Assembly (NCBI GenBank): GCA_030613565.1
Contig: JAUWLS010000001.1
Span: 27,355-91,354 of the forward strand
Direction of reading: 5' to 3'
Length of the DNA stretch: 64,000 nucleotides
Origin: Candidatus Shapirobacteria bacterium
Lineage (GTDB): Bacteria > Patescibacteriota > Microgenomatia > UBA12405 > JAUWLS01
The translations under genes and the position numbers were made by a program. This document shows, piece after piece, positions 56,363 to 57,325 of this stretch. Under the pieces are notes generated by a model. It was not told the origin of the DNA and did no database searches. It saw only the letters and a program-made list of their open reading frames with translations. Position 1 is the first letter of the stretch. Each line of letters opens with the position of its first letter.

Positions 56363-56398
56363 CAATCTTCGGCTTTTCTTCGGTTTTACGCATTGACT
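56363..56398 (+). repeat. 36-bp promoter-block direct repeat, copy 1 (tandem TCTTCGG-N4-TCTTCGG plus a TTGACT -35 box)
   Basis: 33/36 identical to 57290..57325. Followed at 17 nt by CAAAAT. Confidence 0.7.
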
Positions 56399-56430
56399 AC
56401 CCCCTTATCAGACTGTCAAAATAGAGGGAT

Positions 56431-57207
56431 ATGAAGTCAATTAATTTTTTCGTCGACGAATTAGGTAGCGCCAGTCCCAAGGCTGTTGCGTCTAGACTTT
56501 ACATACTAAGCGGAATAATGGTCAGTGCCAAATCCAAGGAGCAACTAAAGATTAAGGCTGATCAAATTAAATTTAAATATTGGGGTAAAACCAATGCAAT
56601 TTTTCATTCCAGAGAGATAGGTAGAAAAAGTGGTGAATTTGATATTCTTAAAAAAGAAGAAACGGACAAATCTTTTACAAAAGATCTGATTAGGTTTTTA
56701 CATCAAGGTGATTTTCAACTCTTTAGTGTGTTGGTCGATAAGACTAAAATGCCTAAAAATTGGAACGAAAAAACAATTTACAAAAAAACCACAGATCTTA
56801 TTATTAGGAATTTTATTTTTGCCCTGCTTGCCAAAAAAAGCTGCAGGGGAAGGCTTATAGTGGAATCTGCAACTGCAGAAAAAGACTTTTACTACCATAA
56901 GGCAGTTGGGCATTACTTGGCAAGGGGTTTTAGTAAACTGAATATCAACTACAAAGAAGTTCAGGAGGTGTTAACAGAAATTTCCTTTGTTACCAAGAAA
57001 AACTTTGACATAGAAGAGCAAATAGCTGACATCTTGGCTTATGGACTCAAGATTAAATACGAAAAGAAAAGTAAGGATCAAGCAACTGAATATGAACAAA
57101 AATTAATCCAAGTTATAAACAAAAAACTCTTTAATATACATCCAAAGACAGGGAACAAAAAAAAGAAGCTCTATTCACAAATAGAAAGTTTTAAGATAAT
57201 CCCTTAA
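56431..57207 (+). CDS. Hypothetical protein, weakly DUF3800-like (FVDELG N-terminus)
   Basis: 258-aa ORF flanked by duplicated promoter blocks; weak resemblance to DUF3800 Y.DESG. Confidence 0.35.
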   Translation: MKSINFFVDELGSASPKAVASRLYILSGIMVSAKSKEQLKIKADQIKFKYWGKTNAIFHSREIGRKSGEFDILKKEETDKSFTKDLIRFLHQGDFQLFSVLVDKTKMPKNWNEKTIYKKTTDLIIRNFIFALLAKKSCRGRLIVESATAEKDFYYHKAVGHYLARGFSKLNINYKEVQEVLTEISFVTKKNFDIEEQIADILAYGLKIKYEKKSKDQATEYEQKLIQVINKKLFNIHPKTGNKKKKLYSQIESFKIIP

Positions 57208-57289
57208 AAACAGAAAAAACTGGGTCGTGGCATCGCGCTCACTCACCAGTTCTTATCTATCAGCATTATAGCAAAAAAAGATCAAAACA

Positions 57290-57325
57290 CAATCTTCGGC
57301 TTTTCTTCGGTTTTGCTTATTGACT
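57290..57325 (+). repeat. 36-bp promoter-block direct repeat, copy 2, upstream of recA
   Basis: Same block, TTGACT-17-CAAAAT, about 60 nt upstream of the recA ATG. Confidence 0.7.

Follow-up and report, generated by a model that had tools for sequence, protein, structure and literature searches.

Introduction

The Patescibacteria, or candidate phyla radiation, are an uncultured group whose gene regulation is experimentally almost unexplored. A small DNA-damage (SOS) regulon of this group, which includes ribonucleotide reductase genes and to which DUF3800 genes are not known to belong, was reportedly described by Sanchez-Osuna, Barbe, and Erill in 2017. The LexA protein of Rhodobacter sphaeroides, a direct-repeat binder, is said from work by Tapias and colleagues in 2002 both to stimulate and to repress recA. 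Here we analyze a 64-kb stretch of DNA from a Candidatus Shapirobacteria bacterium (contig JAUWLS010000001.1; the whole stretch is called the window below), in which a 36-nt block with a tandem direct repeat occurs twice, once upstream of recA and once upstream of a DUF3800 gene located between ddl and recA. Our best explanation overall, which we regard as probable, is that the SOS box and promoter of recA were copied in front of an inserted module, composed of the DUF3800 gene and a small RNA gene, and that the two promoters are under joint control by LexA.

The LexA boxes of Alphaproteobacteria are direct repeats of the form GTTC-N7-GTTC with an 11-bp period, and the Patescibacteria LexA motif is counted among 17 distinct LexA motifs (PMC8565304). 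Proteins of the DUF3800 family are RNase H-like and accompany type VII retrons and Cas12a2/Cas12a3 loci (PMC7736814, PMC10910872, PMC13594972). They have DE and QxxD motifs (PMC7736814), and an RNase H-like fold has been predicted for the family (PMC7736814, PMC10910872). Weinberg et al. (2017) described 11 unrelated RNA structures beside DUF3800 genes (DUF3800-I to -XI), along with drum and skipping-rope (PMC5737381).

The locus forms a compact natural experiment, in which the same operator is located at the resident recA promoter and, 927 bp away, at the promoter of an inserted gene, with an empty-site relative for comparison. It bears on the placement of an SOS box upstream of a -35 element, on the recruitment of a promoterless mobile gene to a stress regulon, and on the roles of DUF3800 proteins and their companion RNAs. 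A link to DNA damage provides a functional lead for the DUF3800 family, which is also found beside retrons, Cas12a2/a3, and restriction-modification systems. What appears to be new here is the recruitment of a DUF3800 nuclease and small-RNA module into the SOS regulon, and the RNA motif itself.

A recA promoter block in two copies

An earlier note, made from the sequence of the window alone, had described a 36-bp block in two copies at 33/36 identity, and a repeat search confirmed it. The copies are direct repeats located at 56363–56398 and 57290–57325 (both on the + strand), are identical at 33 of 36 positions (92%), and lie 927 nt apart. The full block pattern has two matches in the window, against 0.00 expected from shuffled sequences. 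In the left copy, two CTTCGG half-sites (56367–56372 and 56378–56383) are followed by TTTT and by the -35 element TTGACT (56393–56398). The right copy, which constitutes the resident recA operator and -35, has its half-sites at 57294–57299 and 57305–57310 and its TTGACT at 57320–57325. A consensus promoter scan assigned the -10 element CAAAAT to both promoters, at 56417–56422 (+, preceded by TG) for the DUF3800 gene and at 57343–57348 (+) for recA. The note had placed CAAAAT 17 nt after TTGACT in each copy; this is so for the right promoter (TTGACT-17-CAAAAT, 57320–57348), whereas the spacing in the left one is 18 nt (56393–56422). From the end of the block to the ATG there are 32 nt on the left (DUF3800, ATG at 56431) and 59 nt on the right (recA, ATG at 57385). 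After the recA -10 comes a 36-nt leader, which is also conserved in two relatives (L001 and L002; comparison loci are numbered with the prefix L). The left box is placed between the promoters of ddl and the DUF3800 gene, and the right box between those of the small RNA and recA, which are divergent.

The repeat is rare in the window. Allowing up to two mismatches, TCTTCGG-N4-TCTTCGG has two matches, against 0.32 expected. The shorter form CTTCGG-N5-CTTCGG, at the same tolerance, has five additional sites, every one within a long open reading frame (ORF); intergenic sites are limited to the two perfect ones.

We compared the window with nine recA loci of relatives (L001, L002–L004, L019, L052, L057, L070, and L119, representing about seven distinct genomes) with RecA proteins 71–87% identical to that of the window. 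A single block, orthologous to the right copy, occurs upstream of recA in all nine. Five of them came from an exact-pattern scan of GTDB and belong to Shapirobacteria, Woesebacteria, and unclassified Patescibacteria (RecA, 71–79% identity). Ten promoter copies were aligned, of which the window supplied two and its relatives eight (L003 and L004 being repeats of L002). The elements CTTCGG, TTTTCTTCGGTTTT, and TTGAC are invariant in these ten copies, and the 5′ flank, the 4–5-nt linker, the 17-nt spacer between -35 and -10, and the leader are unconserved. What is conserved is a core, CTTCGG-N5-CTTCGG-TTTT, that has a period of 11 bp (one helical turn per unit) and lies 4–5 nt upstream of TTGAC. 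Because the repeat and TTGAC are invariant while the flanks and spacer are scrambled, the 36-nt block is, as judged by conservation, the functional upstream half of the recA promoter in this Patescibacteria lineage. The same alignment upholds the idea of the tandem repeat as an operator, as its distance to the -35 is also invariant among the ten copies. The direct repeat named in the note, TCTTCGG-N4-TCTTCGG, is real, but the unit shared across species is CTTCGG-N5-CTTCGG, preceded by T, C, or A. A second, degenerate box within the recA core promoter was also sought by eye and was rejected, as it is not conserved among relatives.

In L001, ddl (−) lies directly beside recA (+), separated from it by a 131-nt spacer with one block (RecA, 87% identity; Ddl, 63% identity). 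The spacer consists, in order, of the block CCTTCGGTTTTTCTTCGGTTTTGCTTCTTGACT, 17 nt, TCAAAAT, and a leader resembling that of the window. The ddl–recA region of L001 has no DUF3800 gene, and a covariance model of the DUF3800-associated RNA, described below, has no match in L001 or L002. In L002–L004 (RecA, 85% identity), tRNA-Pro and ftsK instead of ddl are located upstream of the single block. By this gene order L001 is the empty site of the DUF3800 insertion. Insertion of the gene into the recA promoter region, as proposed in the note, accords with this empty site and with the closest DUF3800 homologs (74–79% identical) residing in unrelated contexts; relatives without the gene have one copy of the block each, never two.

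The direct repeat as a predicted LexA operator

The exact-pattern GTDB scan returned at least 120 loci, and about 105 of those listed are chance matches in unrelated, mostly high-GC coding DNA. Among the matches listed, 15 lie on contigs that are from Patescibacteria or resemble them in composition (two such contigs carry the GenBank title "uncultured Gammaproteobacteria"), and 12 of the 15 are intergenic. All but one of the 12 precede typical SOS genes (11/12): recA in five cases and lexA, a polymerase, and nrdR in two cases each. The lexA genes are those of L025 (Kerfeldbacteria) and L111; the polymerase sites lie upstream of a small ORF and a Y-family polymerase in L007 and L089 (Shapirobacteria); and the remaining two lie upstream of nrdR and ribonucleotide reductase in L012 (Curtissbacteria) and L120. 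The twelfth site precedes an unknown gene on a Saccharibacteria contig (L123). The suggestion that the repeat is an SOS-type box is thereby strengthened, as in other Patescibacteria it occurs in the promoters of lexA, Y-family polymerase operons, nrdR-nrd, and a Bro-N gene; enrichment at other DNA-repair genes, which had been set beforehand as the test, was found in these bacteria.

At lexA, nrdR, the L007 polymerase operon, L123, and the Bro-N gene of L193, the repeat has a spacer-type architecture, TTGAC-TTCGG-N6-TTCGG-N1-2-TAnnnT, often with the ATG 5–7 nt after the -10. The box overlaps the core promoter at lexA, nrdR, the L007 polymerase operon, and Bro-N, but not at recA or the DUF3800 gene of the window. 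The L089 polymerase site has a weaker -35, displaced by one base. Both lexA promoters (L025 and L111) have a second, inverted copy of the box 17 nt upstream, and the same box pair occurs in L078 about 550 nt upstream of its lexA. The spacing of the half-sites in CTTCGG-N5-CTTCGG is invariant at all sites, which would suit a dimer. In L005, which belongs to another lineage, the lexA promoter (~790–823, −) reads TTGACTTTGGGTATTGTTTGGTATAAA; its layout is spacer-type with TTTGG replacing the TTCGG half-sites, which suggests operator drift within Patescibacteria. A palindrome, TTCTGG-N5-CCAGAA, is located just downstream of this promoter.

The Bro-N gene of L193 (1824–2718), which is phage antirepressor-like, is preceded by TTGACTTCGGGTAATATTCGG, a -10, and the ATG, and lies ~1.3 kb upstream of a DUF3800 gene. 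It is likely to be SOS-controlled and of mobile-element origin.

In many box promoters, the ATG lies just 5–8 nt past the -10 (L025 937–973, L007 ~6235–6269, L123 ~2936–2971, L129 311–347, and window 56417–56433). Such short distances imply leaderless mRNAs for SOS genes in these organisms. In the DUF3800 promoter, CAAAAT ends 8 nt upstream of the ATG. Because of this spacing, and by analogy with box promoters having the ATG 5–7 nt past the -10, the DUF3800 mRNA is probably leaderless or nearly so.

The repeat is most likely the SOS operator of this group, and binding by a LexA dimer is predicted because of the box in lexA's own promoter, the occupancy of core promoters, and the gene set, which together are the standard in comparative genomics. 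The operator has probably been published already. The reported Patescibacteria SOS network concerns the same group, and its reported nrd genes match the nrdR-nrd sites found here; its motif may be CTTCGG-N5-CTTCGG. Similarly to the LexA box of Alphaproteobacteria, the box has direct half-sites with an 11-bp period (its reverse complement reads GAAG-N7-GAAG) and is found at damage-response promoters. It differs in having CTTCGG as its half-site and in the location of the recA site, which is upstream of the -35 and off the core promoter; binding by LexA is a prediction in the present case.

Several observations weigh against joint LexA control of recA and the DUF3800 gene. The boxes at these two genes end 9 nt upstream of the -35, at roughly -40 to -60, a place more typical of activators than of repressors. 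There is no lexA gene within the 64-kb window, and a protein search with the Kerfeldbacteria LexA recovered Kerfeldbacteria-like LexA only and none from the window's lineage; the regulator is therefore deduced from other Patescibacteria classes. The picture of the regulon, drawn with an exact pattern from the matches listed, is partial and biased towards perfect sites. Lastly, the box is not general among DUF3800 genes, being confined to the window, L127/L189, and L128/L129 among about 79 loci. It is perfect in the window, matches at 10 of 12 positions in L127/L189 (CTTCGG-N5-CTATGG directly before the -10), and is of a degenerate spacer type in L128/L129 (TTGAC-TTCGT-N6-TTTGG-TT-TATGAT).

The location of the box raises the alternative that the direct repeat is a site for an activator, such as a winged-helix regulator of the OmpR/PhoB type, or an UP-like element, which would stimulate both promoters. 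Activator sites of the Pho-box type (class I/II) consist of direct repeats with an 11-bp period upstream of the -35, and the window has this geometry at both recA and the DUF3800 gene, with two 6–7-bp direct repeats just upstream of the -35; its phased T-tracts resemble an UP element. However, at lexA, nrdR, the L007 polymerase operon, and Bro-N the repeat lies in the spacer between -35 and -10, a classical site for a repressor, in which a bound protein obstructs RNA polymerase. The genes concerned (recA, lexA, translesion polymerase, nrd, and an antirepressor-like gene) form an SOS regulon, and autoregulation of lexA is a hallmark of LexA. Two sites in 64 kb are also too few for a general promoter element. 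We therefore consider stimulation through an activator site or UP-like element unlikely, and prefer LexA as the regulator.

DUF3800 protein and its genomic contexts

The DUF3800 gene (56431–57207, +) encodes a protein of 258 amino acids that matches Pfam PF12686 over residues 5–206 (29 bits, cut-off 21). The DE (D9 and E10) and QxxD (Q197 and D200) motifs of the family are invariant in an alignment of 54 sequences. The AlphaFold model of the protein has a predicted local distance difference test (pLDDT) value of 91.9, and in the PDB it best matches RNase HII (1eke) and human RNase H2A (3puf), at low template modeling (TM) scores of 0.39–0.47; with RNase HI included, the TM scores range from 0.25 to 0.47. 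The window protein is thus predicted from its model to be an RNase H-like nuclease with a distant fold relation. It shares with the DUF3800 proteins of type VII retrons and Cas12a2/Cas12a3 loci the same Pfam family, the DE...QxxD motifs, the predicted RNase H2-like fold, and an association of the family with defense islands (its close homologs here lie in type I restriction-modification operons). Unlike these proteins, it stands alone, having no tetratricopeptide repeat (TPR), reverse transcriptase, or Cas partner, and it has an SOS-type promoter. The protein had no match in PADLOC or PHROGs.

The closest homologs (74–79% identical) occur in three kinds of context. The first is type I restriction-modification operons with the order hsdM-DUF3800-...-hsdS-...-hsdR; in L207 (985–1761), L208 (2692–3468), L209, and L210, the start of the DUF3800 gene overlaps the 3′ end of hsdM, and the convergent small RNA is again present downstream. 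The second context is between an ATP-binding cassette (ABC)-type ATPase and a RecD-like helicase, and the third is after two tRNA genes, directly before uvrB-uvrA. No conserved sequence was found upstream of the DUF3800 ATG across these contexts, which indicates that the gene does not carry its own promoter with it. The G+C content of the module is 0.32–0.36, as compared to 0.39–0.45 in ddl and recA. Given the homolog contexts and this lower G+C content, the module appears to be of foreign origin. Viral contigs yielded DUF3800 relatives that are only 23–25% identical and 11 box matches without promoter architecture; these results provide no evidence for a phage-borne module.

In four metagenomic loci a DUF3800 gene is found near lexA. 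In L188, lexA (1058–1672) is immediately upstream of the DUF3800 gene (1801–2544), as it is in L159 (lexA 5–187, a tblastn fragment; DUF3800 285–1073). In L162, lexA (1353–1961) is 2 kb from the DUF3800 gene (3998–4780). The lexA genes of L188 and L162 were identified by Pfam (LexA_DNA_bind and Peptidase_S24), and their promoters have no CTTCGG box. In L005, lexA (103–720, by Pfam) is 5 kb upstream of the DUF3800 gene (6001–6777), which is followed directly by uvrB-uvrA. A recurrent link between the DUF3800 module and damage-response genes is possible; the pattern is suggestive and statistically not firm.

A convergent structured small RNA

The 3′ flank of the DUF3800 gene is more conserved than the protein and consists of an A-run, CTGGGTYGTGGCATCACGCTCACTCNCCAG, and a T-run. 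In an alignment of 45 loci, its minus strand folds into two helices separated by a 3+3 internal loop; the inner helix has a bulged A and is capped by a GNRA (GAAA, GUAA, or GCAA) or GYGAU loop. Within this structure 98% of cells are paired and five of the nine pairs have compensatory changes, as compared to 23–40% paired in controls with slid partners. In the RNAalifold prediction, five further A-U or G-U pairs lengthen the outer helix so that it reaches into the U-run. The G-U pairs and GNRA loops exist on the minus strand only. A covariance model of the element, R1, matched the window at 57211–57263 (−) with 62.7 bits (E=1.7e-15), the sole strong match in the window. The RNA there has a minimum free energy of -17.2 kcal/mol (z=-3.7) and forms a hairpin at 57220–57249 with the internal loop, the bulged A, and a GCGAU loop, its U-run reaching the stop codon of the DUF3800 gene. 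About 68 DUF3800 loci (among L005 and L127–L211) match R1, some of them outside the set from which the model was built, and the match is always convergent with the DUF3800 gene and immediately 3′ to it.

A putative promoter for the small RNA is located at 57265–57292 (−), with a -10 TATAAT (reverse complement of 57265–57270) and a weak -35 TTGTGT (reverse complement of 57287–57292), the latter overlapping the first 3 nt of the right block. Most homologous loci have TTGAC(A/T) 17–20 nt upstream of TATAMT on the minus strand, and the clade of the window keeps the -10 only. These elements would serve as a minus-strand promoter for the small RNA. We considered whether the 3′ element is a mere terminator of the DUF3800 gene. 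This was ruled out by its internal loop, bulge, and GNRA loops with compensatory changes, and further by a separate terminator hairpin that precedes the element in some loci and by the promoter on the opposite strand. The inserted unit is thus a two-gene module, composed of the DUF3800 gene and an RNA gene of ~50 nt with its own predicted promoter and terminator.

In Rfam searches, the region 56250–57450 of the window had no match at E≤10, nor did the block or the 3′ element, and 20 related loci had only tRNAs at the gathering score. The window RNA resembles the DUF3800-I to -XI RNAs in being a small structured RNA that adjoins a DUF3800 gene on the opposite strand and has an intrinsic terminator, and differs from these and from drum and skipping-rope in matching no Rfam model. 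It is a candidate for a further, Patescibacteria-specific class of DUF3800-associated RNA.

Type I toxin-antitoxin pairs, such as txpA/RatA of Bacillus subtilis, also include convergent antisense RNAs that overlap the 3′ end of the toxin gene. The window has a similar arrangement, in that a convergent small RNA has its terminator abutting or overlapping the 3′ end of a protein gene. The protein here differs in being a soluble, RNase H-like protein of 258 amino acids rather than a small hydrophobic or membrane peptide, and the compensatory changes in the RNA point to a structural or protein-binding role and not to antisense pairing alone. A broader idea, which we hold only as a speculation with little probability behind it, is that the DUF3800 gene and the RNA form a self-contained, horizontally moving pair, either toxin-antitoxin-like or an RNA-partnered nuclease, with a role in defense or in DNA/RNA repair. 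Such a pair would have been coupled repeatedly to the DNA-damage response in Patescibacteria, through the captured recA promoter, the box-like promoters of L127/L189 and L128/L129, the vicinity of lexA in L159, L188, and L162, and uvrB-uvrA in L005, and the SOS box might perhaps be the recombination site for its integration.

Origin of the second copy

The duplicated stretch extends over ~60 nt from the box to the -10. Likeness between the copies is confined to the parts conserved among species, and the spacers are unrelated. The two copies agree throughout their first 25 nt, even at five positions at which species differ, and the linker and downstream spacer are unrelated. This identity may reflect common descent, gene conversion, or crossing-over within the box. 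The right copy matches the recA promoters of L001, L052, and L070 at 33/36 positions, the same as the left copy matches the right. We therefore rejected the overall identity as a sign of recent duplication: orthologous recA promoters are equally similar, and so the value of 33/36 neither dates the duplication nor explains it.

The earlier note had also raised a duplication of the insertion target, and this part found no support. Target-site duplications are exact and 2–15 bp long, whereas the repeat here is imperfect and 36–60 nt long. No transposase, integrase, or terminal inverted repeat was found in the module (~0.9 kb) or its surroundings, and no flanking repeats were found in the other insertion contexts of the DUF3800 family, which leaves a classical target-site duplication unsupported. 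The module ends in a bidirectional hairpin terminator, and by inserting downstream of the recA promoter it would silence recA if no copy of that promoter lay between the module and the gene. Retention of both copies would thus be functionally favored.

It is conceivable, but in our view improbable, that the two copies are a by-product of integration, either from an att-like core in a Campbell-type event with a circular intermediate or as a long target duplication, with the left copy having no selected role. The direct repeats do bracket the module exactly, and a crossover inside the box would produce a sharp boundary such as the one after the 25 identical nt. This account is countered by the absence of an integrase, transposase, and terminal inverted repeats in and around the module and of flanking repeats at other insertions of the family. 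In the left copy, the -35 and -10 are both intact and suitably spaced from the ATG, and the overall identity of the copies is no higher than that between orthologous recA promoters.

Still less credible is an ancestral state with two copies and the module, from which relatives such as L001 would have lost the module by recombination between the repeats: such a deletion leaves exactly the single-copy structure of L001, and among the genomes compared only one has the module at the ddl–recA site, but the nine single-copy recA loci have differing upstream neighbors (ddl in L001, tRNA-Pro and ftsK in L002–L004), the nearest DUF3800 homologs are in unrelated loci, and the G+C content of the module is below that of its neighbors, making loss in the relatives less parsimonious than insertion.

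Proposed regulation of the locus

Under the explanation we prefer, copying of the recA SOS box and promoter in front of an inserted module, the DUF3800 module looks to be wired into the SOS response. The comparisons above establish the repeat, the promoters (by consensus and conservation), the empty site, the regulon-like distribution of the box, and the structure of the RNA and its coupling to DUF3800; from these we infer that LexA binds, in which direction it regulates, where transcription starts, and what the nuclease and RNA do. A mobile, promoterless DUF3800 gene would have entered the ddl–recA region together with its convergent 53-nt RNA gene. Expression of the DUF3800 gene would come from the second operator and promoter, probably as a leaderless transcript, and the original copy would still drive recA. 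LexA would keep both promoters down. Upon DNA damage, RecA would become active and LexA would cleave itself, inducing recA and the DUF3800 gene together. The right box abuts the promoter of the small RNA, and so the RNA may respond as well.

Neighboring genes

The gene identities given in the earlier note (ddl, a DUF3800-like gene, and recA) were all recovered by Pfam. The divergent left neighbor of the module, ddl (55283–56329, −), encodes a D-Ala-D-Ala ligase (Dala_Dala_lig_C, E=1e-59; Dala_Dala_lig_N, E=3e-30), beyond which is a tRNA-Pro gene (55193–55267, −). On the right, recA (57385–58395, +; RecA, E=2e-130) is followed by recX (58398–59057, +; RecX_HTH2, E=3e-6) and then rny. Homologs of its RecA and DUF3800 proteins assign the window to the Patescibacteria, and the nearest named relatives are Candidatus Shapirobacteria, at ~74% RecA identity. 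A putative -10 of ddl, TATAAT (reverse complement of 56335–56340), lies 5 nt upstream of an apparent GTG start (region 56327–56340, −). The ddl gene of L001 likewise has an apparent GTG start, with a perfect TATAAT 6 nt upstream (5867–5882); there the gene caller chose a later ATG, dropping 10 conserved residues.

A G+C-rich island is located at ~52700–53250 (0.45–0.56, as compared to ~0.35 around it) and is G-rich on the minus strand. It contains several GNRA-type hairpins and, as for ORFs, only spurious-looking overlapping ones. No Rfam family matched it; the highest-scoring model, skipping-rope (16 bits, E=0.64), fell far short of the threshold. The island may be an unrecognized large non-coding RNA. 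Upstream of ddl, an ORF of 154 amino acids (54380–54844, +) has a weak PD-(D/E)XK match (E=0.0017, profile positions 148–240 only). It looks like a truncated remnant of the 274-amino acid PDDEXK_1 gene that is found after a RhuM gene in L001, which points to a variable region upstream of ddl.

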